A DNA stretch of 64,000 bases from Candidatus Woesearchaeota archaeon (GTDB taxonomy: Archaea > Nanobdellota > Nanobdellia > Woesearchaeales > DSVV01), in assembly GCA_018303075.1 (NCBI GenBank), contig JAGVYW010000003.1, positions 1,598-65,597 on the forward strand. Direction: 5' to 3'. Position 1 is the first letter of the stretch. The number at the start of each line of letters is the position of its first letter. The notes below the pieces were generated by a model that ran no database searches, was not told where the DNA came from, and saw only the letters and a program-made list of their open reading frames with translations. The translations under genes and the position numbers were made by a program. Positions 1-21,506 of this stretch are shown piece after piece.

Positions 1-714
1 TGATATATGAAAGTCGTCAGAACCACTTAATATAGCGTTATCATAACCAACAATATTATGATAGACAAGATAATAATTCTTTCCTGGTTCTATTTGTTGA
101 GTATAGAATAAAAAAGGATTATATTTAAGATTATTAGTAAAATAAGAGTAATATTTTTTATCACTAAAAGGCATAGATGCTTGTGTCAAATAATCTACAA
201 ATAATCCCTCTGTTGTACCACCTAAAGAGATTGATTTTTGATTTTTTGTGCCTTCTATCTTTATTTGAGCACAAAACACGCACATATTATAGTAACTCAC
301 AGCTTTTCTATCAAATACAGCCCCTGTTGCTTCACCAAAGTTTTTCCAGCAGATTCTCATCCGTTCTGCTAATACTGGAAAAACTACCTGTGAGTTTAAT
401 GCTTTATATGAATCAACAATTATTTTTTTATTGCCATCTGCAATAGCTATAGGTGTTTTTTTTTGGTCAATCTCAAGATGATCTGGATAGAAACTAATAT
501 ATGTACGAGGGCATTCAATCGGCACAGGAGAAGAATCACCACCTAATATACCTACTTTTGTTGCCTTGTGAACAGCTGCTGTTGCTGCACATCTTTCATC
601 TTTTTCTTTTGAAAGCAGCTTTGCTAATAATGGAGCTTCAATTGAGAGCAATATTATCAAAGAAACAACTAGTATAATGATAGTATTAATCTTGGAAATA
701 CCTCTTTTCATCAT
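1..714 (-). CDS. secreted/membrane-anchored protein, partial (runs off window start); N-terminal signal-anchor MMKRGISKINTIIILVVSLIILLS
   Basis: Hand-translated minus-strand ORF open from ATG at 714/711 to position 1 (not in ORF track because no stop in window); hydrophobic N-terminus; preceded by the conserved leader motif shared with the pilin-like genes. Confidence 0.5.
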   Translation of the reverse strand, partial: MMKRGISKINTIIILVVSLIILLSIEAPLLAKLLSKEKDERCAATAAVHKATKVGILGGDSSPVPIECPRTYISFYPDHLEIDQKKTPIAIADGNKKIIVDSYKALNSQVVFPVLAERMRICWKNFGEATGAVFDRKAVSYYNMCVFCAQIKIEGTKNQKSISLGGTTEGLFVDYLTQASMPFSDKKYYSYFTNNLKYNPFLFYTQQIEPGKNYYLVYHNIVGYDNAILSGSDDFHIS

Positions 715-745
715 AAAAAACTTCACTCCGTTTGTTTTTTATTAT
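715..745 (-). promoter_or_regulatory. conserved TATA/operator/SD leader, copy A (gene orientation: ATAATAAAAAACAAACGGAGTGAAGTTTTTT-ATG)
   Basis: Near-identical to four other sites at 3948, 4299, 6753 and 7421, each immediately upstream of a minus-strand secreted-protein gene. Confidence 0.5.
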
Positions 746-1077
746 CTTGTATGTTTATTATAAACGCAATAGTTTTACAATACCATAAACAATCGACATC
801 AATATGATAAGTATTGCCATATATATGATTATTCTAACAATGGACGCTTTTTTATTCATAAAAACTTCACCTATAAAAGTCATAATCAGTACTGCAAATT
901 AATTTACGTTCAATTTTTTATTATTGGAAGCGATTGTATTTAAATGTAATGAGAATTTCATAAATTATTTAATTTGTATTTGTATGAGGTATAAACTTCA
1001 CAGTGATAACAAAAAATTTAAAAGTATCTTAGCTATTTTTATGTAATATTTTTAAAGTTGTAAATATTTCTTATCTT

Positions 1078-2718
1078 ATGATAAAAAGAAAAGATAGAGG
1101 ATTCTTAAGAGTTATTGATGGGTTTCGGAGTGATAAAAGCAGAAATGTTTTTGCTGCTCGTGAATTTACCACAATGTTATATGAAATTCAGGAAAGAAGA
1201 GAGGAAAGAATTGTTTCTAGCGAATATGCTGATATTCCTAATAAAGAAGAGAAGATGAGTATGCTTGAGAAAATGCTTCGCCATTATCCAGACAATCTTT
1301 GCATAAAGCTTTCTGCAGCAATTGATTATCTTGAGAGTAAAGAACATAAACATCTTGGACTGCTTGTATTAAGAGAGATTGAAGAAGCAATCACTATGAA
1401 TCCTATACTATTATCAGACCTGCATAATGAAGAGAGTTCTGTTGAGAGGATTGTTGAGGATGCAGATAATAATTTAGGTAATGCAGATCTACAGCTACGA
1501 AGATTGAATATTGCAAAACATTATCTTGATCTTTATAGAGTCATCTCATTAAAAAGTAATTCTCAAAAATTGTATGATATATTAATCAAAAGCTATGCTT
1601 ATGTCTTACTGCGAGATAATGATGCTGCTTTATCTCTCTTTAGGACTATTGAAGAAATACATCCTGACGCTATTTTCATCTATAATCTATATGCAAGAAG
1701 ACTGGAAGCAAGCAATTGCCATGAGGAAGCTGGAAAAAAAAGAGCATTGTTTTCCTCATGGGCATTGCATGACAGCAACACAATATTTGAACGTGTCTCT
1801 AATGCAATGAGAAGTGTATATAAACTAGGCAATGAAGCAGTTCCTGCTGTAAACAAGACATTGATCAGCATTAGAACAAAAAACAAGGATGAAATAAGTT
1901 ATGAACAAGGTGCAATCTTAAGAGCAAAAAGAATTGTACAAGATAATTATTGCTACAGAATAGTCGAGTCTGTACATACAGAATGTATTGATGGTGTGTA
2001 TTATCATGTGCTTAGAAGAAAAAGCGGAGATGTGCTGCTGTCTTTTCTCGAGAATGAGTATAATAAAAGCCAACAATTGCCCGTGCTATCTGAAATAATA
2101 AGATTCTTACAATTGCTGCAGTTTAATATGGGTATTGTAACTAAATGCAATAAGAAAGATTGTGAGAGTCTTGCAGCAAGTTTATCTGCAAGACTTGGCG
2201 GCAATAAAATAAGATTATCTACTGAAGTAAATGATTCAATTGCTGGGCTTTGCGAAAGCTTTCTTTCTGTTCCTATTGTTTATAATAAAGACAGCCATCC
2301 TGAGAATTGGATCATTGAAAAAGTTTATGGAACGCAAGAGATATACATAATCACTGCATTAGATTTTCAGAAAAAAACATCTGCACCCTGCGTATTTGAT
2401 ATTGCAAATCTATTGCGATACGGCAATTATATCTCTGAGAAAAATGAATCAGATTTATTAAGAGAATATTACATAAGAGGATGCAATAACTTGAGTTATC
2501 TAAATGATATAGATTATCAACAATTTCTTAATAGTTATTATGCTGGAGTTGTTTATAGAATGCTGTCTTTCTTTTGCGCATGGCAACATCCTAGAAAAGC
2601 TGGATATTATACCAGGATTCCTGTTGTATTGAATAATGCTGCTGCTGCAATTGACAAGGTTGAGGATAAACAATTTGATAAAGAAAGATTGAAAGAGCTT
2701 ATTTGTTCAATACGATAA
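1078..2718 (+). CDS. hypothetical cytoplasmic protein; C-terminal third carries protein-kinase-like/APH-type phosphotransferase motifs (YNKDSHPENWI catalytic-loop-like, IITALDFQ DFG-like)
   Basis: 546-aa ORF; motif resemblance to aminoglycoside/choline kinase fold (HxDxxxxN and DxD/DFG equivalents); family assignment is from memory of motifs only. Confidence 0.35.
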   Translation: MIKRKDRGFLRVIDGFRSDKSRNVFAAREFTTMLYEIQERREERIVSSEYADIPNKEEKMSMLEKMLRHYPDNLCIKLSAAIDYLESKEHKHLGLLVLREIEEAITMNPILLSDLHNEESSVERIVEDADNNLGNADLQLRRLNIAKHYLDLYRVISLKSNSQKLYDILIKSYAYVLLRDNDAALSLFRTIEEIHPDAIFIYNLYARRLEASNCHEEAGKKRALFSSWALHDSNTIFERVSNAMRSVYKLGNEAVPAVNKTLISIRTKNKDEISYEQGAILRAKRIVQDNYCYRIVESVHTECIDGVYYHVLRRKSGDVLLSFLENEYNKSQQLPVLSEIIRFLQLLQFNMGIVTKCNKKDCESLAASLSARLGGNKIRLSTEVNDSIAGLCESFLSVPIVYNKDSHPENWIIEKVYGTQEIYIITALDFQKKTSAPCVFDIANLLRYGNYISEKNESDLLREYYIRGCNNLSYLNDIDYQQFLNSYYAGVVYRMLSFFCAWQHPRKAGYYTRIPVVLNNAAAAIDKVEDKQFDKERLKELICSIR

Positions 2719-3613
2719 TTGATGCTGAAAAATCCGCAGTCTGTGTAAGAATCTGGCTGCAGATATTAAACAGAAACATCTCTGAGTGATTCCTTGCTTT
2801 GAAATTGATGAGTTCATTTTTTATTATCTCCTGCTGTTTGCTGATATGTGTAAGCTTCTCGAGAGAAAAATTGTAATAAAGATCATAATATAATGAAAAG
2901 AAAGAGTTTACTTTTTCAAACAAAGAAATTATTTCTTGAGATATCTGCTTGTCTTTATCATCCTGCTGTTCGAAATGGTTGCAGATGTATTTATAATTAT
3001 CACAGATTTTTTCTAAATTCCATAGAATAACATACAGAAAATTAGCTTTTTTGTATTCTATTATTCTATGCTTATTAAGGATGCGCTGGCAGAAGTTTGT
3101 CAGCTGATTGTTGAGAAGCTCTAGCTTTTTTGTCTGCTGAAAATTGTAATCTCTCTGTTTTATTTTTGCTGCAGTTTCATCTGCCATCTCTATTGTAACA
3201 CGAAATGCTCTCCTAAAAGAGTTATCAAACTGCTCCTGCTGCTCCTCTACAATTGCTGAGATTACTAATCTTTTTTCGGTTTTTTCTGTAATTGTGAATC
3301 CTGTAAATAAATCTTTGAGCAATTCATTAACTAATTGAAGCTGTTGAGTGTTGTTATAGAACAATTCTATTTCATCATAGCCAGACTTGTGCAGTGCAGA
3401 CAACAACCAGCGGATAACTCGATCATCAAGAGATTCAATCGAGACTGAGATGAACTGCCTGTTGTTCTTTACAGCTGCTGTTATAGTCAATTCATTGCTG
3501 TTTTCCTGAAGATTGAGTTCATCTCCTTTCTGCAGATTATATTTAGAAAGCCATGCTAATGGAAGCGTTATGACATAGGTTTTATCAGCAATCTTGATAA
3601 TCTTACGATACAT
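2699..3613 (-). CDS. AbrB/SpoVT-like N-terminal DNA-binding domain fused to helical PhoU-like region (putative regulator)
   Basis: N-terminus MYRKIIKIADKTYVITLPLAWLSKYNLQKGDELNL matches swapped-hairpin AbrB/MazE pattern; rest is helical, PhoU-like; converges on and overlaps previous gene by 20 bp. Confidence 0.35.
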   Translation of the reverse strand: MYRKIIKIADKTYVITLPLAWLSKYNLQKGDELNLQENSNELTITAAVKNNRQFISVSIESLDDRVIRWLLSALHKSGYDEIELFYNNTQQLQLVNELLKDLFTGFTITEKTEKRLVISAIVEEQQEQFDNSFRRAFRVTIEMADETAAKIKQRDYNFQQTKKLELLNNQLTNFCQRILNKHRIIEYKKANFLYVILWNLEKICDNYKYICNHFEQQDDKDKQISQEIISLFEKVNSFFSLYYDLYYNFSLEKLTHISKQQEIIKNELINFKARNHSEMFLFNICSQILTQTADFSASIIVLNK

Positions 3614-3647
3614 AGATATAGAAATGAAAGGTTATATATTAAAATAT

Positions 3648-3947
3648 TTATTTTAACAAAGGTATGCAACAAACTAAAGTATCATCTACTTCCTTAGTAC
3701 CTGGCTTTAAACAAACTCTTGATGGATCTGCTATATATCCTTCTGATTCTTTACAACCTACATTGAGTTCAACTCCTGCTGTTTTAGAATTACATTCTGC
3801 ACCTTGCACTGCTTTACATTCACTTAGATTTTTGTTGAATAATGCTAATCTTCCTGTAAAGATATATGTAATAACTACAAGAACAACAATTGCTATGATT
3901 GTAATGATCACAATATTTATTGAAAGGTCTGCTTTTCTTTTTATCAT
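3648..3947 (-). CDS. small (99 aa) Cys-rich secreted protein with pilin-like N-terminal signal/TM (MIKRKA|DLSINIVIITIIAIVVLVVITYIFTG), C-terminal CCxPL
   Basis: Basic N-terminus followed by ~25 hydrophobic residues, 8 Cys in the mature part; paralog of 4023..4298; conserved leader upstream. Confidence 0.6.
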   Translation of the reverse strand: MIKRKADLSINIVIITIIAIVVLVVITYIFTGRLALFNKNLSECKAVQGAECNSKTAGVELNVGCKESEGYIADPSRVCLKPGTKEVDDTLVCCIPLLK

Positions 3948-3978
3948 TAAAGACTCACTTCGTTTGTTTTTTATTGTT
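3948..3978 (-). promoter_or_regulatory. conserved TATA/operator/SD leader, copy B (GAACAATAAAAAACAAACGAAGTGAGTCTTTA-ATG)
   Basis: Alignment with copies A, C, D, E. Confidence 0.5.
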
Positions 3979-4022
3979 CTTAATTACTACAATATAAGAG
4001 AATAAAAAAATAGTAAAAATAA

Positions 4023-4298
4023 TTACTGTGCAAATGTTGGCAATGGCGAACAACAAGCATTGACTGTATCTGTGGAACTATCATCATTTAAGCAGACACG
4101 TGTTGAATCTTTGATGTAGTTTTCATCACAGTTTGGCCCCATATTACATCTATTGCCTTGTATTTTTAGACAGTCACTTAAGCCTTTGTTGAACAATGTA
4201 ATTCTTCCTGTAAAAATAAAGGTTATCAGAATTAATACAACTAATGCTATGACTGTAATGACTATTATATTTATTGATAAATCACCGTTCTTTTTCAT
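4023..4298 (-). CDS. small (91 aa) Cys-rich secreted protein, pilin-like N-terminus (MKKNG|DLSINIIVITVIALVVLILITFIFTG), C-terminal CCSPL; paralog of 3648..3947
   Basis: ORF track start 4313 is a GTG that reads the Shine-Dalgarno GTGAGGAGA as MRRFF; true ATG at 4298 lies 7 nt after GGAGA; ~65% identity to the neighbouring paralog over the N-terminal 45 aa. Confidence 0.6.
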   Translation of the reverse strand: MKKNGDLSINIIVITVIALVVLILITFIFTGRITLFNKGLSDCLKIQGNRCNMGPNCDENYIKDSTRVCLNDDSSTDTVNACCSPLPTFAQ

Positions 4299-4340
4299 AA
4301 AAAATCTCCTCACTTTGTTCGTTGTTTTTTAAGTATAGTT
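4299..4340 (-). promoter_or_regulatory. conserved TATA/operator/SD leader, copy C (CTATACTTAAAAAACAACGAACAAAGTGAGGAGATTTTTT-ATG)
   Basis: Alignment with copies A, B, D, E. Confidence 0.5.
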
Positions 4341-4439
4341 AGGTATATTAAACACAGTAAAATATACCTTGCTTTTGATTTTATTCAAAATGATTCTACT
4401 ACTATATAAATCTTTTTGAAATTTTTTCACGAAAAAATT

Positions 4440-5096
4440 TCAAATCTCAGGACATTCGCTGTTTATGCATAACCAAATCTCAACCACATTCATTGATGAA
4501 CCAGATAATGGCAAAATGTAGGGTTCGACACTTCCGGATGTTGCTGAGCTTAAGGTTTTCATTTTTTCCACATATTTCTCATCTGCTTCATCTGGGAGAG
4601 TGATAAATGGTTTTATAGCAGAATCACCACTAGTAACTTTCATCTCTAATTGATAAGGCATATTGAATTGACCAAGTGAATTATCAAATGAAGTTTGCAG
4701 TGCACATTTAAGATATTCATCTATCTTTTGTATATCTTTGCACTGCAGATTTTGGATTGATGATTGGTATTCTGCATCACATTGCATCATATTGTTTTTT
4801 GCAACTGCAACAATCAGATCCTCCATATCTGTGTCAGGCAAACAAAATGAGTTTGTTTTGAGAAATGCTGAAACCATACTTGAAGATAATTGCTGCTGAT
4901 TATATTCATCCAAAACTTTTGAAGACTTTTTGAAAAAAACAGTTGAAACTGTAAACATGATAATTAATGATATAATTATGAAAATGATTAATAATCCCAT
5001 GATTTCTGTTTGTGACTTTTTAGAAAATGGCTCAATGTGCAATTTTCTAAAGAGTTTTTTACTGTGATTCTTCGTGTTGTGTGTCTTTGCACTCAT
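4440..5096 (-). CDS. membrane-anchored secreted protein (218 aa), third gene of overlapping 3-gene operon; TM IMGLLIIFIIISLIIMFTVSTVFF
   Basis: Overlaps upstream gene by 4 bp; single N-terminal hydrophobic segment after a basic leader. Confidence 0.55.
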   Translation of the reverse strand: MSAKTHNTKNHSKKLFRKLHIEPFSKKSQTEIMGLLIIFIIISLIIMFTVSTVFFKKSSKVLDEYNQQQLSSSMVSAFLKTNSFCLPDTDMEDLIVAVAKNNMMQCDAEYQSSIQNLQCKDIQKIDEYLKCALQTSFDNSLGQFNMPYQLEMKVTSGDSAIKPFITLPDEADEKYVEKMKTLSSATSGSVEPYILPLSGSSMNVVEIWLCINSECPEI

Positions 5097-5659
5097 TTTG
5101 CTACCTCTATTCGAATGTAACCAAAACTGTATTGGTTTGTAATTGGATCATAAAATGTTATCGGCAAAAACATGCTATTAATGGATTTTACGTTTTTTAA
5201 CATATTGTCGAAAAGATTGTCTTTTTTTTCGATGGTTGTGTCAACTTCTTCTGAATTTTCTGAAGAAGCTGTATAGGTTGGATAAACTTCTTTTATTGAG
5301 ATCTTGACGTTTAGAAAGATGTTGTCATAGTATTGCTTAAATTTCTTGCTTTTATCTGAAGTATCCTCTAATCTACTCTTAAAGGCTTCAAACTTTAGCT
5401 TGTCAATGCAGTCAAATTCTTCAATTGCTGCTTGCGTGCAGATAAGTTCTGGCAATGATTTTACCTGCTGAGCAATCTTTAAGGTGTGGAGTTCTAACTG
5501 TTTCTTTTGTTCGTCTCCTGCAGAGATGCTTTGAATTTTAACATAGAAAACTGCACCAATTGTCACTAAAATGAAAAATATCATCAATACAAAGATTGTT
5601 TCTCCTATCTTTAGTTGAGATTTTCTTGTTAATAGTTTCATTAGTACAACCTCGGACAT
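5093..5659 (-). CDS. membrane-anchored secreted protein (188 aa), pilin-like N-terminus (KIG|ETIFVLMIFFILVTIGAVF)
   Basis: Overlaps flanking genes (19 bp and 4 bp); basic-G-E then hydrophobic stretch. Confidence 0.55.
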   Translation of the reverse strand: MSEVVLMKLLTRKSQLKIGETIFVLMIFFILVTIGAVFYVKIQSISAGDEQKKQLELHTLKIAQQVKSLPELICTQAAIEEFDCIDKLKFEAFKSRLEDTSDKSKKFKQYYDNIFLNVKISIKEVYPTYTASSENSEEVDTTIEKKDNLFDNMLKNVKSINSMFLPITFYDPITNQYSFGYIRIEVAK

Positions 5660-6732
5660 CTTCCACCTGGAGCTAAGAGAATCTCTTCATTGAGATCTTC
5701 AAGAGATTGCTTTGCTGCAACAGTAGCAGCAACATCACTTTCAATTTTTACATTAATGGTTGTTCCTAAATTGACATCACTGCCTAAATAATCATATGCG
5801 GTTTTATAATATACAGAACAATGACTTAATGAAGAATCATCTTTTAATTGCCAAGCTTTAAATTGATATAATGAACTAACATATTGGTAACGTTTAAAGG
5901 CTTTCAAAAGATTACATTGATAAACTAATTCATCTTCAGAAAAGATTACGCCAATTAATGTAGGAGTATCAAGATAATAGCTGCCATCTCCTTCTTTAAT
6001 ATTTTCAACTACTTTGTTATTCTTCTTTAATTTTGTAAATGAAAAGCTTCCAGATGGTTCTGGTCTTAACATAAGCACATCAATGTTTCTTGCTTCTTTT
6101 TCTTCTTTTATCTTATCTAACCATGAAGGAAGTTTTCCATCTTCTGAAATATAAATAAATCGCAACAGATACATATTATCAGGATATATTACTGAGGTTG
6201 CACTATTATCTAAAAATTCTACATTTAGAAATTGTGTTTCTGCCATCATACCATATAATTCCTTAGCAAATTGCTTGCTTTTGTCATCGTCATCAGCAAC
6301 AAAATAATAGTAAACATCATCTCTTGTGAGATAGAGCAAGTTGCTAACTTTAAATGGATAATTCCAGTCAAGCGTCCAGGTGATTAATTGTGATTTCTCA
6401 ATCTTTTTTGGAGAGAAGATTGGCAGAAATGCAGTGATTGGCAGAAATGCAGTGTCTTTAGCAATACCACTATCTCCTATCTCAATATTTGACTGACAAT
6501 TATTACCTTTGCATGAACATTCAAATGTTAATGCTGTGTCTTCGATGTTAATCTTGTTTGCTGATTTTGCTGCTTGAGATGCGCCAAGAATTGTTGTGTC
6601 AAGCTGCTGCAAAATGTTTGCGTTTATCTTGATCTCTTGGTTTGTCATGTATTTCTTTGCAATAACTATGAAAAAAACCAGAATAAGAGTACCAACTACT
6701 AAAATATAAATCCAATTGAGCTGCGCTTCCAT
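5641..6732 (-). CDS. membrane-anchored secreted protein (~363 aa), first gene of 3-gene operon; TM WIYILVVGTLILVFFIVIA; Cys-containing extracellular domain
   Basis: ORF track start 6768 again reads the SD as MRRFF; at the position homologous to the ATG of the other leader copies there is ATT (ATT ATA AAT AAG...); next ATG is 6732 (MEAQLNW). Confidence 0.55.
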   Translation of the reverse strand: MEAQLNWIYILVVGTLILVFFIVIAKKYMTNQEIKINANILQQLDTTILGASQAAKSANKINIEDTALTFECSCKGNNCQSNIEIGDSGIAKDTAFLPITAFLPIFSPKKIEKSQLITWTLDWNYPFKVSNLLYLTRDDVYYYFVADDDDKSKQFAKELYGMMAETQFLNVEFLDNSATSVIYPDNMYLLRFIYISEDGKLPSWLDKIKEEKEARNIDVLMLRPEPSGSFSFTKLKKNNKVVENIKEGDGSYYLDTPTLIGVIFSEDELVYQCNLLKAFKRYQYVSSLYQFKAWQLKDDSSLSHCSVYYKTAYDYLGSDVNLGTTINVKIESDVAATVAAKQSLEDLNEEILLAPGGRCPRLY

Positions 6733-6752
6733 AAATGCTTTCTTATTTATAA

Positions 6753-6791
6753 TAAAAAATCTCCTCACTTCGTTCGTCTATTTTTTAAACT
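6753..6791 (-). promoter_or_regulatory. conserved TATA/operator/SD leader, copy D (GAGTTTAAAAAATAGACGAACGAAGTGAGGAGATTTTTT-ATT)
   Basis: Alignment with copies A, B, C, E. Confidence 0.5.
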
Positions 6792-6843: not shown

Positions 6844-7416
6844 TTAACTTGTTGTTGTTGACTTTATTGGTGGATTAGATACTTTTACTCCATTTCCTAA
6901 ACCTATAAATTTAACTTTTATCTCTCCAGCAATTGCTTTAAAACAGATTAATCCTGCAGAATCGTCAACTTTCATCTTTTCAACCAATAATGGATAATCA
7001 GGGACGAATGGAATTGTCATGACGTTCTGGTTTTTTCCAGTCTGCCATGCATCACATATTATTGGATCAACCATTTTCTTTTTATCAGCAGATATTAGTT
7101 GTGACCCTCCACCATCATTTCCACCACAGACAATAGATTTATTTGCTTTACTTGCACCTTCTTTAGATAAATCAAAGAAACAAACATACTGTACTTTTTT
7201 TGGTACAGGAATCTCTTCAATTGTCCATGAACCATATTTTGTGCTGTATTTTTTTGCTGTTGTTTCAAGCGATGTCTTTAAGCTCAGCAGATCAATATCT
7301 TCTGTTGTTTCCATCAATTTCATAATATATTTAACTCCAAAAAATAGGAGCATACCTATAATAACAATTCCTAAGATGTACATTAACATGTCTTGAACTT
7401 GTGCTTTCTTTTTCAT
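6844..7416 (-). CDS. secreted protein with archaeal class-III-like signal peptide (MKKKA|QVQDMLMYILGIVIIGMLLFF), 190 aa
   Basis: K-A-Q followed by hydrophobic helix matches the prepilin-peptidase substrate pattern; alternative start 7428. Confidence 0.55.
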   Translation of the reverse strand: MKKKAQVQDMLMYILGIVIIGMLLFFGVKYIMKLMETTEDIDLLSLKTSLETTAKKYSTKYGSWTIEEIPVPKKVQYVCFFDLSKEGASKANKSIVCGGNDGGGSQLISADKKKMVDPIICDAWQTGKNQNVMTIPFVPDYPLLVEKMKVDDSAGLICFKAIAGEIKVKFIGLGNGVKVSNPPIKSTTTS

Positions 7417-7420
7417 AATA

Positions 7421-7458
7421 AAAAACATCTCACTTTGTTCGTGTTTTTTATATACACA
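7421..7458 (-). promoter_or_regulatory. conserved TATA/operator/SD leader, copy E (GTGTATATAAAAAACACGAACAAAGTGAGATGTTTTTTATT-ATG)
   Basis: Alignment with copies A-D; clear TATA box TATATAAAAAA. Confidence 0.5.
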
Positions 7459-7471: not shown

Positions 7472-10400
7472 TTACTTCTTCACTTTCTTTCTCAATTCTT
7501 CAATCGCATTGCCTGACTTTCCTTTTACTGTCTTTGCTAATGCTGCGAATGGATCTTGTTTTGCTGCATCTTGCTTTGCTGCAGCTGGTTTTGCAGCAGA
7601 TTGCGGCGGGAATGATGATTTAGTCAGAGGTTGATTTAGTTTTCGATCAGTTGTTGTTGATTGCTTTGTTTGTGATTGTTGCGATACTGTTGTTTTTTCC
7701 TGCAGTTTTGGTGTATCTTTCTTTGCAGATAAACCTAATGAATCGAATTTGCTTAAAATATCTTCACGCTGTCTTTTTCTTAGCTCTTCTTTTTTCTTGC
7801 GCAATTCTGCTGACATAGGCATGAATCTTCCTGCAGATTGACGCGGGAATTGCTGCTGCGATGTGCTTAGAGGTTGTGACTGTGATTTTGAGCTTAATGG
7901 CGACAATTGCTGTGATGAAAATAACGACTTCTGCATAAATTTGATGTAATAATAATATCCTCCTCCACCTAATAAGATAAGGAATAAGAAAATTAGTAAG
8001 AGAATCGTACCTATGCCTGAGCTTTCTTCTTCTGGCTCTTCATCAAGTGATTCATCTGCTGGTTCTTGCCCTATTTCATCTCCTTCACATGCTTCACAGG
8101 ATTTTCCACCACAATCAATGTCTGCCTCATCACCATTTCTTTTGCCGTCAAAACATGATGGTTGAGTGCAAATATTTTTCTCGCAAGAATTTGTCGTACA
8201 ATCACTGTTGAAACTGCATGCTTTTCCTTTTTCACATGCATCGCATAATGTTCCACCGCAATCAATATCTGATTCATCTTGATTTAATATAGTATCTTCG
8301 CATGATGCTTTTTTACAAATATTGTTTAGACATTTTTTTGATGCACAGTCTGAGTCGTTTGTACAAGCGTTGTTATTGGAACATTTAGGACAATTGCCGC
8401 CACAATCTACACCTGACTCATTGATATCTTTCTTATTATTCTTACATAAATCAACTAAATCTGGTTTTCCAATAGTTACTAAACTTTCTGTACTTATTGT
8501 AACACCATCACTCGATGATACTTTCGAAGAAGTCAATCCAACATTGTTTGTTGCTTTTGCACTCCAATAATATTTAGTCTTGTTTAGCAATTTTAAACCT
8601 GAAACTGTAACTTTTGAATCTGTTGTATTTGCCCAACTAAAAACATCAGATGCTCCTTGTTTTGTACCTATTGCGAATTCATAGTATTTAATGCCAGATT
8701 CATTATCTTCATAATTAAACACTGCGCTTAGAGTGTCGAGACTGCTTGTGGTTATACCGTCGTCAATGCTTTTGAATAATGGAGCAGTTGTGTCAACGAT
8801 AAATGAATGGTAACCTAACATCAATTCATCTGCATTCATCAGTTTACAGCTGAAATAATAAGTATATTTTCCATCTTTGAAATCTTTTTCGTTTGATTCG
8901 TGATGTTTGTTTGCTTTATCTCCTTGTTTTGTTGTTGTTAAATTTTCTGTCAAACTATCTTCAATTTGACCAAAACTGCAGTATTCAACTTGCTTTTCTG
9001 TTTCAAGTATAATCTTATGCTTTTTTACTGACGTTAGTAATGGGGGAGATAAAAAGTTCATACCTATTCCATAACTTGTATCTACCTTAAATGTTAATGA
9101 TTTCTTTTCGCTAACGTATTTTGGATCTGTTAAACCATTGTCACACTGCACATAATAAGTGTAATCATCTTTACCATCTGACCTATCTTGTTTATCATCA
9201 ATCCTTTTTATATCTGCTGCAGGATATTCATTGCTTAGTTCTTCCTGATTTATAGTTTTTAATGGAATCTCACCATATCCTGGAAATTTATTGTTCATAT
9301 TAGAATAACTATAATCAGGCTGTCTTGTAAATTTACATTGTGTTAAGTCATCTGTTTTTACAACTAAATTTGTTTTTATTGGGAATTCTGTCAAGGCAGG
9401 AGGATCTTTGTTGTTGCTTGGATCAATTGTTAATGAAGTGATTATTGGAGTTGTATTGTCAAACACTAATAAGAATATCTGCTCTGCTTCTACTGAACCC
9501 TGCAAAAAACATTTTACATAGAATGTTTTTGGAATTCCCTGATCTGCGTCTGTTAATGTTATTTTTTCTGTAAATGTTTTTCCATTACCATTATTGAATT
9601 TATTAGATGGAACAAAGCTTTGCGATTGTGAATAGATACATTCTTTTGCTGTGATATCAAGAGATTCTTTTAGCTTAATCTTAAAATCAAAATCTGGCTT
9701 TTCAGAAATTCCATTAGATGGAGAAACTAATTGAATCAATTGCTCTTGTATTAATGTACGCAGGATGTAATATGATTTTGTTTCTTCAGCTCCAGATCTG
9801 TCAACAGCTGTAATTTTTACTTCATTTAAACCTTCAGCAAGATCAACTGTAATTGATAATTTTTCATTTGCTGGTTTTTCCTCAAAAAATACTGATTGAG
9901 CTGCATCAACACTGATAACTTCAACAGTTACTTTGTTGTTTGCAGGCGAATTTAATACTGCATCTGGATCTTCTATTGTTATCTCTAAATCATATGTTGA
10001 ACCATACCATTGCTTTGGGTTATCTGGAGTTGTAAATTGTGCAAGATAGTCAACGTCAATCTTTGGTGGAAGAGAATCAATCTGGAATTTAACACAATTC
10101 TTCTCTTCAAATAATCCTCCTTTGCCATCAATTACTTTCTCTTGTGATTTGTAGCAAAGCCATTGCTGTGATGCCTGTGAAAATGCTGCATCTATTGAAT
10201 AGATTGGATTGTAAATGTTTTCTTGTTTTGTTGGATCTGGTTCACAAAATGAGTTGCCTTCTGTGTTTTCAGTAATGCAAAAATATGTTTTGTCACAATC
10301 AAATCCTATTGCTGTTTGCCCAAAAAAAATGGACTTTGGATCATCTGAGCAGCTGAAGAATAATTTTTCTGCAATATCTGTTCCTTTGTAAAATAATGAT

Positions 10401-13729: not shown

Positions 13730-13972
13730 ATGGATACTGTAGAATATACAATAAGACCAACAAAACATTTCATATTTGGCTGGATGAAAAAATGGGATTA
13801 TGATATAGAATTACTCAGAACAGCTTTAGAAACAGCATATAAAATAGAAAAAGTTGGAAAAATTAAATATGAAGCTTATTTTAGAGCAAAAGGTAAAAGC
13901 AGAAAATTAATATTTGTTAAAGATGATGTTGCCAAAGATATAATCATAATAACAGGAGCTGAAGGAAAATGA
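13730..13972 (+). CDS. small toxin-like protein (80 aa), DUF4258-like (…KLIFVKDDVAKDIIIITGAEGK)
   Basis: ATGA 4-bp overlap with downstream zinc-ribbon gene; C-terminal h-x-h-V...IITay pattern recalled for DUF4258 toxins that pair with YgiT/MqsA-type antitoxins. Confidence 0.4.
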   Translation: MDTVEYTIRPTKHFIFGWMKKWDYDIELLRTALETAYKIEKVGKIKYEAYFRAKGKSRKLIFVKDDVAKDIIIITGAEGK

Positions 13973-14310
13973 AACAATGTAATATTTGTGAAAAAGGAAT
14001 GCTTGAAAAAGTAGAGGACATACTCCTTGAGATTGAGAATTATGCATTTGTTGTCAAGGGAGAAAGATGCAATTCCTGCAATGAAGAAATTCCTTTTGAA
14101 GAAGAGACACAAAAAACAATAAACACAGCTAGAAAACTCGGAGTTTGGCCTGAACCATTGAAATTATATAGACATTTTTCTCGAAGTGGGGGTGGACTTG
14201 TCTTTCGTGTTCCTAATGATTTAGAACGCCAAATGCATCTCTCTGAAAAAACAGAAATAGGCATAAGCAAAGTAGGCCGTAAAATTATTATTGAACCAAT
14301 TGAGAATTGA
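13969..14310 (+). CDS. antitoxin-like: YgiT/MqsA-type zinc ribbon (CNIC...CNSC) fused to AbrB/MazE-like C-terminal domain
   Basis: C5-x2-C8 ... C34-x2-C37 spacing typical of YgiT-type zinc finger; C-terminal GGGLVFRVPNDLERQMHL swapped-hairpin-like. Confidence 0.45.
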   Translation: MKQCNICEKGMLEKVEDILLEIENYAFVVKGERCNSCNEEIPFEEETQKTINTARKLGVWPEPLKLYRHFSRSGGGLVFRVPNDLERQMHLSEKTEIGISKVGRKIIIEPIEN

Positions 14311-15924: not shown

Positions 15925-18900
15925 CTATCCATTTACTGGTAATTCCATCTGATTGCTGCTTAAAATAGCAGCTAATTGCGGTGAGATAATTGGTTCTATT
16001 GCTGGAACAAGTGCTGGATTTATTGGAATTGCCTGCAGTTGCTGTCTTATGCGAAGCTTTGATGTAAGATCTGAAAATTTATTATAAGGAATTCCATTTT
16101 CGTCTTCTGTCTTTGTAAATAAGTAAGTCAATGAACTTGTAGATATTGGAATCATATTACAGTAAATATCCTGATCTGCCTGAGCAATTTTAGTACAGTC
16201 AATATTTTGATTGAATATGCCGATAATTGGATTGAAATAAATTATTGCCGTAAAATAACGAAGCGAATGGCTTCCTGTCTCTCCAGAGCTAGGATCCCAT
16301 TTTCTTTCTGTAATTCCAAATATCAATTGGTTTGCTGCAATGTTTTTTAGCAGATAGAAATTATTGAAATCTGCAATCTCAGCAATTATATCAGAACCTT
16401 GAAAACTCTTTGATTTAAATGCATCAAGCTCTTTTTGACTTGAATGTAATCCGATTAATGTATTTGCGAATCCTTTCAATTGGCTGTTGTGTTTATTATA
16501 ATTCTCCTGTATATCTTTTAAATTATTTATACCATTCTTATTATAGATAATTGCCTTTAGCTTGTTGTTGTAATAAAGATGTTCTGAACATTTCTTGTAG
16601 ATACCATAACGGGAGCTGTCTTCTTCTTTTATATCACATTTAGCTGCATCCTCATCAAAGAAATCCCCGCTTTTTACAAAGCCAAGTGTATTGAATAATT
16701 CTGTTGGATCAAATGTGATTGAATCTTGTTCTGTGTTTTCTGATTCAACCTTATTAACTGTAACACCAAGATAGGTTTGATCTTTGACCTTTAAAATACA
16801 GAAACTATTGACTGCATCTTTGATAAGAATATTTGCAGCTTCTGTTTCTGCTGATATAGAATTGTAATTTAATGTTTGGTCAGCTGGAGCACAATGCAAT
16901 GTGAATTCATTGTCTCCTGCGATGTCTAACAATTGTATTGCTAATACTTTTGTCCTGCTTGACCATTCTGCATTGACAAGCTGGTTGTTCTTGTAGACTG
17001 GCTCGCAGAGATGATCCTTGTGAAAAAAGAATTCTTTGTTAGTGCAGAGAGAGATACCCCCAGATTTCAATTCGAGGTCTTCTGCATATTCTTCGAGATT
17101 AAGCGAACCTTCTTTGATTGTTGTATATTTTTGATCACATTGATCTTCATCATCATATGCTGCGCTTGGACAAGCACATGAGAATGATTCTGTGCAAAGA
17201 TTGCTGCCGTCTTGTTTTAATGTTTCCAATTCAATTGTGTCATTGTACCAGTTATATTTTGGTGTTGGTTCTTTCCATTCTCCACCTTTGCAGATGTAGA
17301 ACTTACCATCTCCTGTTGTTTCAGATGATACTGCTTCCCCTTCACTAACACAATTTGGTCCATCTTCATCTTCTGCAGGATTCCAGCAGGAGTTTGCAAA
17401 ACAACAACTTGAATAATCATAAGAATCTTTATCTACCCATGGAACTGTGGAGAGTTTCATTGGAATCTCTTCGAGCTCTAAGTTCTTTGCTTTTGAATCT
17501 GTAAGAATTAACTCTTCTGCGGGATAACCTAGCTTTACTGCTGTTTTAAGTGCTTCTTTTTCTTCATCGCTTAAAGTATCTGTTTCTTTAATGTTGTCTT
17601 CATTAAACACTAAAAAAGTATTATCTGGCAAACATGCAGAAATATATTTGTTTGTATTATCAATTGCAATTCTTTTTGCTTGGCAAGTATTGTAGTTTCG
17701 TTCAAGAGAGAATAAAGGTTCTTCTTGAGGTTCTAAAGCATCATTGCTTGTGATAAAATGAAATGCTGATGGAATAATAGGTGTTATAGTTGCTGTTTGT
17801 AATGCATTACAAGTCCAGATTTTTCCTTTGACTGCGTAGTAGCCTTGTTTTGAATTATCATCAATTGGATCATTGAATGGTTTTGCATAATCAATGTAAG
17901 TTGATTTGACACAAGCGCCGTTTGGAATCTTTAAAAGATTGCCGTCAATACTGTCATGTGTTGGATTTTCTTCATTATAAGTTATTTCTTTTCTTTCTTT
18001 TGTTTCGTAATTAAATTCCTGCATACAACAACGAGAACCTGTCCATCTGCCACTTAAGTAGAAATTACAAACATTATGAAGATAAGGATCGAATTTATTT
18101 TCTTCTTCTGGAGATTTAAGATCTTCCTTTACATATTCAGGATTTTGGCGGAGAACTGCGGTATCTTCAGATTCTATGGTGAAATCAATATCACTCGTTG
18201 AACTTGTAATTTTTGCAGCTTCATCGAGAGTTATCCATTCAAAAACATCTCCTTTGCCTTGATCAAAGTAGTGATTGCAATAGAGTGGTACTTTTTTCTC
18301 CCCTAATTTATATAAACCTAAATCTGTTGTTCCTAATCCGCGCAGTTTAACTTTGTTTTTAGTTCCAAAGTTTCCTTTATCATAATCTTTTCGAGGATAT
18401 GGGTTGCTTGTACAACGATATGCACCTGTTTCTGAATCAATTATTTGTATTGGTTCTCCATATTCTTTGTTATCTACACCCTCAACAATAGTTGGATATA
18501 AACAGAGTTTTTCTTGATTAGAATAATCTACTATTTCTGTTTCCTCAGGATGATTCAATGATATCTTTTGCTTGTTTTCGTTATAATTAATTACTTTATT
18601 TGTCAACCATATATAATCGTCACCACAGCATGCAACTTTTGCATTGTTGTTAAAATTAGTAATACTTCCAATTTTTTGATTATCCATATATGTACCAATA
18701 CATTGATTAGAATTCCCATCCCAATCTACTTGGTACATAAATCCTGTTTCTTCACCAAACATTACTGCAGTTCCTAAATATTCTTTTTGATATGTTTTAA
18801 CCTCTTTTGTATATGTAATCTCTGGATTAGACTGAGATTCAACTGTTGTTTGTGTTGCTTCACCTGATCTTCCTGATAAACTAAAAACTCTTGGAATCTG

Positions 18901-19581
18901 CTCATCTGGTTTTTTTCCTTCATTCTTTTTATACCATTCTTGGTCATTTCTAATGTAATATCTACAATGCCCATCATTTCTTTTTGCTTCAGAAATAGTA
19001 TTGTCATAGTTATCATTTTTCTTTGCTTCATAACTTATAAAAAGTTCTCTATAAGGTTCAGAATTAAATACACCTGATTTATCAAATGGAATATTGATTG
19101 ATGGTGGATTTGATGAAAAATCAGTCTTAAGAAACTCATTAATTTTCCCATCATAACCCTCTTTATCAGCATATGTTTTTCTAATTACAAATGGTTTTCC
19201 AACGTAAGATTTTTTTATATCCTTATCTTTATCAGACTGAAGCCCATAATAATCTGGATTAAAACAGATTATTCCTACTTCTAATCTTAATTTCGTATCA
19301 CCTTCATAAGATTCTGTTGCTCCAGAACTACTTGGCTGTTTATTTGGATCCAATTCACCTTCATTATAGTTTTGATCTGTCAGAATTATATCTGATTCTT
19401 GTGGGGAGATTTTATCACTTTTTTCATCACCCTCGACTGAATCATCTTCAATTTCTTCAGGAGGTTCATCTCCTTGTTCAGCAACAATCACTTTAGAAAG
19501 CACACTTATTAGTACTATAATTAGAACTATAAATATCAAATACTTGCTTGTATTCCCCTTTTCCATAAATATCCTAATCAA
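15925..19581 (-). CDS. large (1218 aa) secreted/anchored surface protein, Cys-containing, no recognisable enzymatic motif
   Basis: N-terminus MEKG|NTSKYLIFIVLIIVLISVL hydrophobic; acidic linker then large globular region with paired Cys. Confidence 0.6.
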   Translation of the reverse strand: MIRIFMEKGNTSKYLIFIVLIIVLISVLSKVIVAEQGDEPPEEIEDDSVEGDEKSDKISPQESDIILTDQNYNEGELDPNKQPSSSGATESYEGDTKLRLEVGIICFNPDYYGLQSDKDKDIKKSYVGKPFVIRKTYADKEGYDGKINEFLKTDFSSNPPSINIPFDKSGVFNSEPYRELFISYEAKKNDNYDNTISEAKRNDGHCRYYIRNDQEWYKKNEGKKPDEQIPRVFSLSGRSGEATQTTVESQSNPEITYTKEVKTYQKEYLGTAVMFGEETGFMYQVDWDGNSNQCIGTYMDNQKIGSITNFNNNAKVACCGDDYIWLTNKVINYNENKQKISLNHPEETEIVDYSNQEKLCLYPTIVEGVDNKEYGEPIQIIDSETGAYRCTSNPYPRKDYDKGNFGTKNKVKLRGLGTTDLGLYKLGEKKVPLYCNHYFDQGKGDVFEWITLDEAAKITSSTSDIDFTIESEDTAVLRQNPEYVKEDLKSPEEENKFDPYLHNVCNFYLSGRWTGSRCCMQEFNYETKERKEITYNEENPTHDSIDGNLLKIPNGACVKSTYIDYAKPFNDPIDDNSKQGYYAVKGKIWTCNALQTATITPIIPSAFHFITSNDALEPQEEPLFSLERNYNTCQAKRIAIDNTNKYISACLPDNTFLVFNEDNIKETDTLSDEEKEALKTAVKLGYPAEELILTDSKAKNLELEEIPMKLSTVPWVDKDSYDYSSCCFANSCWNPAEDEDGPNCVSEGEAVSSETTGDGKFYICKGGEWKEPTPKYNWYNDTIELETLKQDGSNLCTESFSCACPSAAYDDEDQCDQKYTTIKEGSLNLEEYAEDLELKSGGISLCTNKEFFFHKDHLCEPVYKNNQLVNAEWSSRTKVLAIQLLDIAGDNEFTLHCAPADQTLNYNSISAETEAANILIKDAVNSFCILKVKDQTYLGVTVNKVESENTEQDSITFDPTELFNTLGFVKSGDFFDEDAAKCDIKEEDSSRYGIYKKCSEHLYYNNKLKAIIYNKNGINNLKDIQENYNKHNSQLKGFANTLIGLHSSQKELDAFKSKSFQGSDIIAEIADFNNFYLLKNIAANQLIFGITERKWDPSSGETGSHSLRYFTAIIYFNPIIGIFNQNIDCTKIAQADQDIYCNMIPISTSSLTYLFTKTEDENGIPYNKFSDLTSKLRIRQQLQAIPINPALVPAIEPIISPQLAAILSSNQMELPVNG

Positions 19582-19711
19582 TTTTTGATGTGCAAATATA
19601 TAAATGTTTCTTTGAGAATTTTGCTATCCGACAAAATTCTCTTATTTACGCCTGTCTTTGAAAAAATTCATATATTTTATTATTTAGTAAATCTACGCAG
19701 GAGTACAAGTA

Positions 19712-20902
19712 ATGAGCATTCTTAAGTGGATACAAATATATATATACTCTAATAAATTAGTTTTCTATCAGATGTCAAAATTAACAGATTATATAGAAAA
19801 AGAACTAAAAAAAGGGTTTTCTATCGAGAAGATAAAGGAAACACTCCTTAAGTATAAGTATCCTGAAGATGAGATAAATGAAGCTTTAGTTGAGGTTAAA
19901 CAATATGAATTTCCACAGCATAAATGGAAAAAACCTTTATTGTGGGAAATGATAGGGGTTGTTGGAGGGTTGATATTAATAATTATTCTGCTGATTTATC
20001 CTTTTGACAGAGTTGGAGAAGGAGTTCAGGAGAAAATAGTTCCAGAGAAACCATTAACTGTACCAGAATGTGATGGGTTGCAGCCAGCAAAGAGAGATGT
20101 TTGTGTATTGAGATTAGCTGCACAAAGGAATGAAACAGAGATTTGTGTTGTGATGAATGATGTTTCTCGAAAGATTGACTGCTATCAGAAAATTTGGGAG
20201 AAGAATGAATGCAGATATCTGGAGATTATTGGAGAGGATGCGGATGAGTGTTATGTGGGGAAGGCGGTTCTGGAAATGGATTTTACATATTGTTATAAAA
20301 CAAAAGATGTTGAGAAATGTTTTGAAAAACTGTTTTTATTAAATAATACTAAAGATATTTGTTTGAAAGAAGGTTATTTGGATAAAGACTGTCTTGATTA
20401 TTATATCAGCACGACTAATGAAATTTCTTTATGTGATAACTTTGATATATATAAAAAAGGTTTTTGTATTTATGATATAGCTATCAGAACAAACAATAAA
20501 GAGTTATGCAACTATGATTTCGGTAAACCACTTACAACATTTTCTTGTAAGTTTAAAATTGCGTCTAATAAAATGGAAAAAGAAAACATAATAAAAGAAT
20601 TTCAACAATTAATGATTGAGAAATATGAAAAAGGACATATTAACACCAATGAATTTATCTTTGATATTGCAGTAATAGAAAAAGATATAAATTATTGTAA
20701 ATTAACAACTAATGATAAAATCGAATCAATAAACAGTTTAAAAAATAATACATTTTATAATATGTGTTTACTAATAGTTGCATTACAGAATAATCAATCA
20801 GATATTTGCGAACAGATATCTGACATCACTGATCAAAAGGTATGTAAAGAAATAGTAAAAGATCAATGCAAAATTAATAAATATGTTGATATTTGTAATT
20901 AA
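19712..20902 (+). CDS. type-II membrane protein: ~80-aa cytoplasmic N-domain, TM (LLWEMIGVVGGLILIIILLIY), extracellular domain of ~10 degenerate ~30-aa Cys-containing repeats (C-x10-12-C-Y/F)
   Basis: Periodic Cys spacing visible in translation; likely start at second Met (MSKLTDYIEKELKKG). Confidence 0.5.
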   Translation: MSILKWIQIYIYSNKLVFYQMSKLTDYIEKELKKGFSIEKIKETLLKYKYPEDEINEALVEVKQYEFPQHKWKKPLLWEMIGVVGGLILIIILLIYPFDRVGEGVQEKIVPEKPLTVPECDGLQPAKRDVCVLRLAAQRNETEICVVMNDVSRKIDCYQKIWEKNECRYLEIIGEDADECYVGKAVLEMDFTYCYKTKDVEKCFEKLFLLNNTKDICLKEGYLDKDCLDYYISTTNEISLCDNFDIYKKGFCIYDIAIRTNNKELCNYDFGKPLTTFSCKFKIASNKMEKENIIKEFQQLMIEKYEKGHINTNEFIFDIAVIEKDINYCKLTTNDKIESINSLKNNTFYNMCLLIVALQNNQSDICEQISDITDQKVCKEIVKDQCKINKYVDICN

Positions 20903-20915
20903 AGGTTGATATGAT

Positions 20916-21506
20916 ATGAATTTAAAAAAATGTTTTAAAAAGTCATTATTGTTGATTATATTTATATCCTTATGTGGAATAGCTTTATCTGCTCCTGAAG
21001 GTTATATCACCAAATTACATTACAATGACTGCGATGGGGGAGCTGTTAGTGAAGATGTTGGTGAATGCTTAGTTTCTTGCGTAGTTAGTTGTGATACTCT
21101 CGATAAAGGAAAAATAGTTGCAGAGCAGTTTGTAAAAGCTGGAACTGAGGATGGATATGGTAATGAAGGCTGGATGGATAGTTGGGTTGATCTCTACTTT
21201 CCTGATGGAAAAAAACTAACAGTTAATACAAAAAATAACAAAGATCATTTCAATTTTGAAAACTTTAATAGCGGTGATTATTCCGGTAGTTATAAAAATC
21301 TATTAGTTGGAGTGAATATAAAATTACAACAGAATGAATTAATAGTAGAAACAGCTAATAAATTCAGTGGTGCATGTCCAGGAACATTTTTAAATTGGTA
21401 CGCTAGTTATGATACAGGCAATTTAGATCATTATTGTTATTGTGCGTCACATCAAAATAATGAGAAGTTAGAAGATATATCTTATGATGGCAGCTGTGAT
21501 ACGTAA
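20916..21506 (+). CDS. secreted protein (196 aa) with Sec signal peptide MNLKKCFKKSLLLIIFISLCGIALSAPEG
   Basis: Classic n-h-c signal peptide; Cys-rich mature region. Confidence 0.55.
   Translation: MNLKKCFKKSLLLIIFISLCGIALSAPEGYITKLHYNDCDGGAVSEDVGECLVSCVVSCDTLDKGKIVAEQFVKAGTEDGYGNEGWMDSWVDLYFPDGKKLTVNTKNNKDHFNFENFNSGDYSGSYKNLLVGVNIKLQQNELIVETANKFSGACPGTFLNWYASYDTGNLDHYCYCASHQNNEKLEDISYDGSCDT

Follow-up and report, generated by a model that had tools for sequence, protein, structure and literature searches.

EppA-processed pilins of Methanococcus maripaludis carry Gly at position -1 of the processing site, Gln at +1 as their hallmark and Glu at +5 (PMC3875500), and are encoded away from the epd assembly operon (PMC3875500; preprint 10.64898/2026.04.22.720090). 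The same preprint reports type IV filament (TFF) system 1 in some DPANN archaea and notes stand-alone pilin loci, while two conserved CpaF/TadC-type, type IV pilus-like loci have been described across the cluster-2 DPANN archaea, Woesearchaeota included (PMC11291902). Among the episymbiotic Saccharibacteria of the candidate phyla radiation (CPR), an ultrasmall episymbiont is reported to use pilins for host binding. Here, a cluster of genes for pilin-like and very large surface proteins is described from the left end of a 64,000-nucleotide stretch, hereafter the window, of a scaffold from a tiny groundwater archaeon of the DPANN group, Candidatus (Ca.) Woesearchaeota. To our knowledge Woesearchaeota have no cultured member, and how DPANN archaea hold on to partner cells is known only for the few that have been cultivated. 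No paper describing the locus was found in the literature.

The locus is single, conserved and easily located by its position beside the gene for RNase P p30, and it encodes some twelve pilin-like proteins along with three surface proteins of very large size. It is read here, at a probability of about 0.58, as supplying a type IV filament-like apparatus, built on a core of four "minor pilins", with its structural subunits and adhesins, while the peptidase and motor would be encoded elsewhere. That many DPANN proteins are pilin-like is not surprising in itself; a fixed, lineage-wide locus, its four-gene core and a very large, undescribed pilin-headed family are useful and testable. What was computed here is the gene content and its synteny, conservation resembling that of signal peptides, the sizes of the families, a single confident fold and the lack of machinery nearby.

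The cluster, most of which is contained in positions 1-21506 of the window and about 2 kb to the left of the window edge, lies on a 71,955-bp scaffold of a metagenome-assembled genome (MAG) and corresponds to J4232_01255-01300, every product of which is annotated by NCBI as "hypothetical protein". Its open reading frames (ORFs) are taken to be real genes because conservation at the protein level reaches relatives that are only 24-46% identical. All of the ORFs listed in an earlier sequence-only reading of the window exist at or very near the coordinates given there, and the pilin-like and large surface proteins are as follows (aa, amino acids; TM, transmembrane segment; a slash marks the pilin-like junction):

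1..726, minus strand: pilin-like protein MMKRG/ISKINTIIILVV..., the N-terminal 238-242 aa of a 259/263-aa protein running off the left edge
3648..3947, minus strand: 99-aa small pilin-like protein RKA/DLSINIVIITII..., whose ~60-aa C-terminal knob contains 6 Cys
4023..4298, minus strand: 91-aa small pilin-like protein KNG/DLSINIIVITVI..., with 6 Cys
4440..5096, minus strand: 218-aa pilin-like protein KKS/QTEIMGLLIIFII, module member 4
5093..5659, minus strand: 188-aa pilin-like protein RKS/QLKIGETIFVLMIFF, module member 3
5641..6768, minus strand: 363/375-aa pilin-like protein NKKA/FMEAQLNWIYILVVG, module member 2 and the largest of the module, with 4 invariant Cys
6844..7428, minus strand: 194-aa (190/194) pilin-like protein KKKA/QVQDMLMYILGIVIIG, module member 1, directly downstream of the 2047-aa gene
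7472..13615, minus strand: 2047-aa type I membrane protein with a Sec-type signal, a TM at 1867-1885 and a Q/S/K-rich low-complexity tail of ~160 aa
14353..15918, minus strand: 521-aa pilin-like protein MKKA/QITFFVIIGIVVLG, with a large ectodomain
15925..19581, minus strand: 1218-aa secreted protein with a Sec-type signal, no other TM and 32 Cys; start probably ATG 19566
19712..20902, plus strand: 396-aa type II membrane protein with a small cytoplasmic N-domain, a TM at 80-98 and an ectodomain with 20 Cys
20916..21506, plus strand: 196-aa secreted Cys-rich protein with a Sec-type signal, no TM and 10 Cys

In eight of these window proteins (263, 99, 91, 218, 188, 363, 194 and 521 aa), a basic leader that ends in [KR/N][GAS] precedes a single hydrophobic segment of 19 aa or more, and the basic leader and hydrophobic segment previously noticed are thus present in every protein for which they had been claimed. 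Judged by eye, pilin-like N-termini belong to 8 of the 15 genes in 1-21506 and to 1 of ~46 elsewhere in the window (Fisher p = 1.7e-5). An automated junction rule caught six of the eight (p = 5e-4) and missed both small pilins, one through its K-N-G junction, which among the eight is found only in the 91-aa protein, and the other through an overlapping spurious ORF that displaced it. The lone motif match outside the region is a DUF2157 membrane protein and therefore a false positive.

Orthologues in every family differ in the length and sequence of the leader but are conserved from the [KR][GAS] junction on; for example, MSAKTHNTKNHSKKLFRKLHIEPFSKKS, MKKRFQNKS and MKKKS all precede an identical QTEIMGL. 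A variable leader before a conserved mature N-terminus is the signature of class III (prepilin) signals. Among 101 diverged representatives of the 521-aa family, with leaders mostly of 3-16 aa, position -2 is K/R in 87 and position -1 is G/S/A in 91, and the putative mature protein starts with Q at +1 in 92, T at +3 in 84, F at +5 in 91 and G at +9 in 76. Across the families the -1 residue is G, A or S; at +1, Gln is found in the 194, 188, 218 and 521 families, Asp in the small pilins and Phe or Met in the 363-aa protein. Glu occurs at +3 or +6 in two families and is absent in the 521 family. On these patterns the junction behaves like a class III signal. The seven pilin-like families aligned with hhalign are alike only in the N-terminal segment (probabilities <20%, matches within residues ~2-60), with no paralogy detected among them outside it. 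A shared N-terminal segment alone is typical of pilin-like proteins.

The four consecutive genes for the 194, 363, 188 and 218-aa proteins form the core module, in which the start of the 218-aa gene and the stop of the 188-aa gene overlap by 4 bp. For the 363-aa gene the most likely start is GTG 6768 and not ATG 6732, the KK(A) leader before "xxExQLNW" being kept in its orthologues, and its family is narrow, with 8 sequences found even by profile search. Related loci were compared under working numbers: L003 is the population of this scaffold, L008 and L016 belong to the groundwater Woesearchaeote HZA96, L005, L010 and L021 represent a second lineage, and L014 is GCA_016935985.1. Orthologues of the 188-aa protein are present in L005, L008, L012 and L013 and those of the 218-aa protein in L005, L008, L013 and L015. 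The order of the giant and the module (giant, ~190, ~360, ~180, ~195 aa) is kept down to 24-27% identity.

The same holds for the cluster at large. Its gene order recurs in HZA96 at 69-87% identity, in the second lineage at 44-59% and in a third lineage at ~30% (a 335-kb Joint Genome Institute (JGI) contig and L009), as well as in L012, L013, L015 and a 72.8-kb JGI contig. It runs from a ~1,000-1,200-aa secreted protein through a 521-like protein, a ~2,000-2,150-aa giant and the ~190, ~360, ~180 and ~195-aa module to 1-3 small pilins, an AbrB-domain protein, a convergent 546-aa gene, two paralogues of the 263/314-aa type and a 275-aa protein. RNase P p30 is the immediate neighbour of the cluster in four lineages; three of these also show PP-loop, THUMP or MCM genes farther out, matching the window. 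This fixed slot in lineages 24-46% identical means that the cluster is part of the vertically inherited core genome.

Rates of divergence differ within the cluster. Compared with HZA96, flanking housekeeping genes are 76-94% identical and the four module proteins 81-87%, followed by the 2047-aa (76%), 521-aa (69%), 396-aa (53%), 1218-aa (44%) and 196-aa (27%) proteins. The 1218, 396 and 196-aa proteins are the fastest-evolving components, the last being the most divergent. To judge from these identities, the contrast looks like that between a conserved scaffold and rapidly changing outward-facing parts. Fast-changing outer parts are the pattern expected of structures that meet partners, predators or viruses.

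The 91 and 99-aa proteins, which are paralogous (47%), are candidate major subunits. One to three copies of the small pilin are present in relatives (L005, L015), and the 91-aa protein falls in the same 90%-identity cluster as its counterpart in the HZA96 MAG. The 263-aa protein is a paralogue (28%) of a 314-aa protein encoded just outside the window, and a KK[AS] junction is retained by its L005 and L015 orthologues. The scaffold ends 1.96 kb to the left of the window, and this stretch holds four more genes, for proteins of 41, 314, 48 and 275 aa, all of which combine a KK[A] junction with a single hydrophobic helix. Three independent assemblies of the population (L001-L003) break at the same point, just past the 275-aa gene, where a strain-variable or repeated region could have halted assembly. 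Beyond this gene, a relative has a third small-pilin paralogue of 128 aa and then pilin-like genes encoding 104 and 759 aa. Very small ORFs of 41 and 48-49 aa (L003 2719-2844 and 816-962; L006 9081-9230) consist of a KK[A/G] junction and one helix and nothing else; that of 48 aa is kept in the lineage of 45% identity, and these helix-only peptides are reminiscent of Flp/EpdE-type pilins without a globular domain.

The 521-aa protein belongs to a very large family. A profile search of 1.84 billion representative proteins returned 6,498 members at E <= 1e-3, 3,389 at <= 1e-10 and 630 at <= 1e-30, and nearly all of the best 150 matches span most or all of the profile. Many members are 1,000-1,800 aa long and have a Cys-rich C-terminal extension. 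No match was found in Pfam, NCBIfam or the PDB, nor a Pfam domain in 8 sampled members. The two members with an informative source name are both from Ca. Woesearchaeota and neither is functionally annotated; a scan of a genome collection gave two loci only. One member lies on a 3-kb contig binned as Methanosarcinales, which is suspected to be mis-binned. At L014 (21897-24764), from a high-GC Woesearchaeote, a 1863-aa protein with a 521-like domain is encoded at the RNase P p30 locus, and a gene for an STT3/AglB oligosaccharyltransferase lies ~6 kb downstream of it.

An AlphaFold2 model of the 521-aa protein, built from 101 sequences, is confident (predicted local distance difference test score (pLDDT) 88.3, predicted template-modelling score (pTM) 0.85) and consists of a continuous 72-residue helix (residues 2-73), α/β domains and a C-terminal β domain. 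Foldseek gave weak local matches only, at a query-normalised template-modelling score of ~0.15, to cadherin repeats, the SraP adhesin, Rib/immunoglobulin (Ig) domains, SbsB and Sap, with no strong PDB match for the α/β domain. The α/β domain contains the invariant polar residues QGG, NRxPAL and D358, and the near-invariant AYDPDED motif of the family would fit a cadherin-like calcium site. The stop codon of the 1218-aa gene lies 6 bp upstream of the 521-aa gene, and a partner of 938-1102 aa occupies the same position in relatives.

Giants of 2030-2149 aa are encoded at the position of the 2047-aa protein in L005, L008, L015 and two JGI contigs. The N-terminal third of the 2047-aa protein is Cys-rich (66 Cys in residues 41-754), its long middle part is Cys-poor with "PPxI"-type motifs and sub-threshold Ig-like matches (Big_13), and three "DCGGxxCxxC" repeats lie next to the membrane. 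The large partners had been described as exported or anchored, and this is so: the 2047-aa protein has a signal and one TM, the 1218 and 196-aa proteins a signal only and the 396-aa protein one TM. The 2047-aa protein (102 Cys, 5.0%) and the 396 and 196-aa proteins (5.1%) are Cys-rich, and the 1218-aa (2.6%) and 521-aa (1.9%) proteins only moderately so; the 91/99-aa small pilins reach ~6%. The 396-aa gene is divergently transcribed and has a probable start at ATG 19772, giving 376 aa beginning MSKLTDY, which is conserved in L010; its orthologues are 48% (L010) and 53% (L016) identical. In Pfam and NCBIfam searches with all locus proteins, their orthologues and 8 members of the 521-aa family, the AbrB domain of a 304-aa protein was the only match above threshold, and PDB sequence searches with the 2047, 1218, 304 and 546-aa proteins and the profile of the 521 family gave no match.

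N-glycosylation sequons are usually frequent in archaeal S-layer proteins. In the exported proteins of the cluster (1-21506 and L003 1-2700), N-x-S/T is found 19 times where per-protein shuffles predict 51.5±6.9, a 2.7-fold depletion, and in the orthologues of the lineage of 45% identity (L005/L010/L021) it occurs 26 times against 74.7±7.8. The reverse S/T-x-N, the adjacent N-S/T and N-x-x-S/T are all at expectation in the same proteins, and N-x-S/T is not depleted in cytoplasmic proteins of the window (50 vs 48.5). The L015 lineage shows no such depletion and the 521 family at large is enriched (662 vs 443). This direction-specific pattern suggests selection against N-glycosylation of these surface proteins in this sub-lineage.

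No assembly machinery was found in the window, in agreement with the sequence-only reading, nor on the rest of the 72-kb scaffold or beside the cluster in relatives. The Pfam scan of the rest of the window covered most ORFs of 100 aa or more, among them all that could by length encode a secretion ATPase, and no T2SSE/FlaI ATPase, T2SSF/FlaJ platform or A24 peptidase was found in the window; two Pfam-negative ORFs there are soluble proteins. Precomputed Pfam calls for the right-hand 6 kb of the scaffold contain no pilus machinery, and none was found in the whole cluster of a relative (rebuilt end to end, ~33 kb) and 9 kb past its far end, or in ~10-kb flanks in six other contexts (L005/L010/L021, L014, L015, L016 and two JGI contigs). 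Since pilin genes are separate from the assembly operon in M. maripaludis and ATPase/platform loci exist in Woesearchaeota, a machinery-free window is expected and not anomalous. The contrast that had been drawn between this cluster and a canonical pilus operon is therefore a false one.

In the proposed mechanism, about twelve proteins would be made with class III (prepilin-type) signal peptides and inserted in the membrane, where a prepilin peptidase encoded elsewhere would cut after [KR]-[G/A/S], mostly before Gln. An ATPase and platform, likewise encoded elsewhere, would draw the subunits out of the membrane for stacking by way of their N-terminal helices. The bulk subunits would be the 91/99-aa Cys-knotted proteins, possibly together with the 41/48-aa helix-only peptides, and the co-transcribed 194, 363, 188 and 218-aa proteins would be conserved "minor pilins" with a role in priming or capping the fibre. 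On stalks of the same kind, the 521, 263, 314 and 275-aa pilin-like proteins would display large ectodomains on the fibre. The 521-aa protein, with its predicted cadherin/Ig-like domains, is translationally linked to the anchorless 1218-aa protein and probably holds it on the cell, and the anchored, Cys-rich 2047-aa giant, always encoded directly upstream of the module, may be a further adhesin or a base component. A probable regulator of the cluster is the AbrB-domain protein encoded last in the operon. The output would be attachment to a partner cell or surface. Cleavage, polymerisation, contact with partners and adhesion are the steps we infer; the surface attachment proposed from the sequence alone is still the best reading of the locus.

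The remaining features in and beside the cluster are as follows:

2699..3613, minus strand: 304-aa protein with an N-terminal AbrB/SpoVT (MazE-type) DNA-binding domain (PF04014, 26.9 bits, above cut-off)
1078..2718, plus strand: 546-aa cytoplasmic protein without TM, convergent with the cluster; a 34% orthologue lies at the same position in L005/L021
13730..14310, plus strand: insert of two overlapping small genes, for 80 aa and then for a 113-aa zinc-ribbon protein with a weak AbrB/MazE-like match, in a toxin-antitoxin-like layout

The 304-aa gene is the last in the pilin operon, has a 52% orthologue in synteny and encodes a probable transcription regulator of the cluster. The 546-aa protein, without a match in Pfam or the PDB, is by its position alone a possible regulator. 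Its C-terminal half had looked kinase-like by eye (DSHPENW, ALDFQ); the Pfam and PDB searches gave no support, and a kinase assignment was dropped. The insert at 13730-14310 is strain-specific, being missing in L008/L016 and replaced in L005 by a 416-aa pilin-like gene, and the gene pair is not part of the apparatus. A variable slot at 21733-24125 separates the cluster from RNase P p30 and contains an AAA_14/DUF4143 ATPase, a 150-aa ORF and a helix-turn-helix protein with a nucleotidyltransferase domain; it is absent in L016, is occupied by AbiEii in L010 and by HicA/HicB in the 335-kb JGI contig. The rest of the window is ordinary archaeal chromosome, with MCM, PolD DP1/DP2, Cdc6, RNase P p30, PAN, phenylalanyl-tRNA synthetase and tRNA-splicing endonuclease identified by Pfam. 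A solitary Cas4/PD-(D/E)XK nuclease gene lies at 58282-58839 on the plus strand, with no other cas gene among the Pfam-scanned window ORFs; an array of clustered regularly interspaced short palindromic repeats (CRISPR) was not sought.

Several points weigh against a type IV filament. Models of class III signals and archaeal pilins (Pfam Class_IIIsignal/DUF361 and Pilin_N; NCBIfam archaeal flagellin/pilin) do not match, even when isolated N-termini are compared with Pfam at E up to 10, and the best N-terminal matches (T4SS_pilin, E = 0.0026; TadE/G-like, E = 0.018) are both under cut-off. The Glu at +5 of Epd pilins is not conserved; together with the failure of the curated models this is why the proteins are filed as pilin-like and not as DUF361/Epd members. 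Ser is common at -1, whereas leaders of M. maripaludis pilin-like proteins end in Gly (PMC3875500). The AlphaFold2 model of the 363-aa protein is too poor to judge (pLDDT 58), with only a long N-terminal helix (7-57) visible, and the 2047-aa giant, having its own TM anchor and Sec-type signal, need not belong to a fibre. Neither prepilin peptidase, ATPase nor platform was found on the 72-kb scaffold or within ~9-10 kb of the cluster in relatives, and type IV pilus components have been stated to be missing in DPANN genomes (bioRxiv 10.1101/2020.05.14.094862). The failure of the class III models, the missing machinery, that paper and the type I topology of the giant also speak for a rival of ordinary, uncleaved signal-anchors: the type II proteins and the type I giant would then form a membrane-anchored envelope complex (a wall, an S-layer-associated or a cell-cell contact layer) with no peptidase, filament or ATPase, and the residues conserved after KK would serve the packing of helices within the membrane. 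The positive-inside rule also predicts KK before a TM helix, and the weak Foldseek matches do include the S-layer proteins SbsB and Sap. That rule, however, leaves unexplained the near-invariant G/S/A at -1 and Gln at +1 in ~100 diverged sequences with variable leaders, and likewise the same junction in at least eight unrelated families of one locus. In addition, the 72-residue helix predicted for the 521-aa protein, running from the membrane segment straight into the ectodomain, has the architecture of a pilin, and type IV pilus-like loci do exist in Woesearchaeota (PMC11291902). As for an S-layer, the 2047-aa protein has the signal and C-terminal TM of an S-layer glycoprotein but no S-layer family match, and sequons are depleted in the locus; neither an S-layer nor a solute-binding family or fold, either of which would have spoken against the earlier reading, was found for the cluster. 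An envelope complex of this kind is regarded as unlikely, though it is the main rival.

A variant in which class III cleavage occurs and no long fibre is built, resembling a bindosome or pseudopilus, is considerably less probable again. A short stalk or raft would show ectodomains that are binding proteins or scavenging enzymes, and the giants would be independent and share regulation only. Large ectodomains are indeed found on most of the pilin-like proteins (188-521 aa, with 1,000-1,800 aa reached in the 521 family), as on the class III sugar-binding proteins of the Sulfolobales, which are encoded apart from the Bas machinery (preprint 10.64898/2026.04.22.720090), and the invariant polar residues of the 521-aa protein could form a binding or catalytic site. 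Yet no solute-binding or enzyme family is matched and no ATP-binding cassette (ABC) transporter adjoins the cluster, the small 91/99-aa subunits and the conserved four-gene set look like parts of a fibre, and adhesion is suggested by the cadherin/Ig-like domains together with the rapid evolution of the secreted partners. Almost no weight is given to a horizontally acquired island or an integrated viral or mobile element bringing its own surface or entry proteins. Unannotated "hypothetical" genes throughout, and toxin-antitoxin or defence-type inserts inside and beside the cluster, would suit such an element, but GC content is uniform at ~31% in the cluster and the rest of the window, no integrase or tRNA gene lies at the cluster borders (no tRNA and no Rfam family at gathering threshold was found in the entire window), and IMG/VR and GenBank phages contain no relatives. 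The same position by RNase P p30, PP-loop, THUMP and MCM in lineages 24-46% identical effectively refutes an island, and the term used in the sequence-only reading should be abandoned.

A type IV filament-like apparatus also has a bolder version, which is put forward tentatively as possible and not probable: a lineage-wide Woesearchaeal organelle at a fixed position, with the minor-pilin core and giant Cys-rich adhesins of undescribed families and folds, among them the pilin-headed 521-aa family, would be the archaeal counterpart of the bacterial minor-pilin/PilY1 priming complex and serve as a host-attachment device, with the 1218, 396 and 196-aa proteins setting partner specificity. In a more radical form, the prepilin-like N-termini would function without any type IV machinery. 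The locus bears on the conflicting literature over type IV filament biology in DPANN archaea, and the 521-aa family, which is large, has a confident model and belongs to no database family, is a target for family definition, groundwater metatranscriptomics and proteomics, cryo-tomography and cleavage assays.

Among described systems, the Epd pili of M. maripaludis (system 1, EppA-processed) share with the cluster a short basic leader, Gln at +1 (in several families of the cluster), many pilin-like proteins ranging from <80 aa to several hundred aa, and pilin genes scattered off the assembly operon; the need for several minor pilins beside one small major pilin is counted as a further likeness. 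Unlike Epd pilins, the proteins of the cluster lack a DUF361/Class_IIIsignal match and a conserved Glu at +5 and frequently have Ser at -1; their ectodomains are unrelated, giant Cys-rich partners are present, no equivalents of EpdJKL or EppA were seen, and the cluster is known from sequence alone. The bindosome of the Sulfolobales (GlcS, AraS, TreS) similarly places large functional ectodomains on a pilin-type N-terminus, with genes away from the machinery, but a solute-binding fold and linkage to an ABC transporter are lacking here. The cluster-2 DPANN loci, described with Ca. Nanohaloarchaeum antarcticus, concern the same group of organisms, Woesearchaeota included, and a proposed role in host contact, and are a plausible source of the ATPase and platform for the cluster; they differ in encoding CpaF, TadC, FlaF/PilA and coiled-coil proteins, none of which is in the cluster; the cluster is a separate locus that the paper does not describe (PMC11291902). 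The type IV pili of Saccharibacteria are bacterial, have canonical machinery and show no homology with the cluster.

In layout, there is also a bacterial likeness. The minor-pilin operon of bacteria is fimU-pilVWXY1E, and by analogy with the minor-pilin/PilY1 operon and the GspH-I-J-K genes of the type II secretion system (T2SS), the cluster would combine an operon of four pilin-like genes, one encoding a far larger protein, with an adjacent gene for a giant non-pilin adhesin and with small major subunits encoded nearby. The resemblance is in layout only; unlike PilY1, the giant of the cluster has its own TM anchor and the archaeal envelope has a single membrane. Curated models do not recognise its proteins, its ectodomains bear no relation to theirs and its giants are novel, so the cluster is a member of neither system; by analogy, it would act most like the Epd/system 1 pilins and be laid out like a minor-pilin/PilY1 operon.

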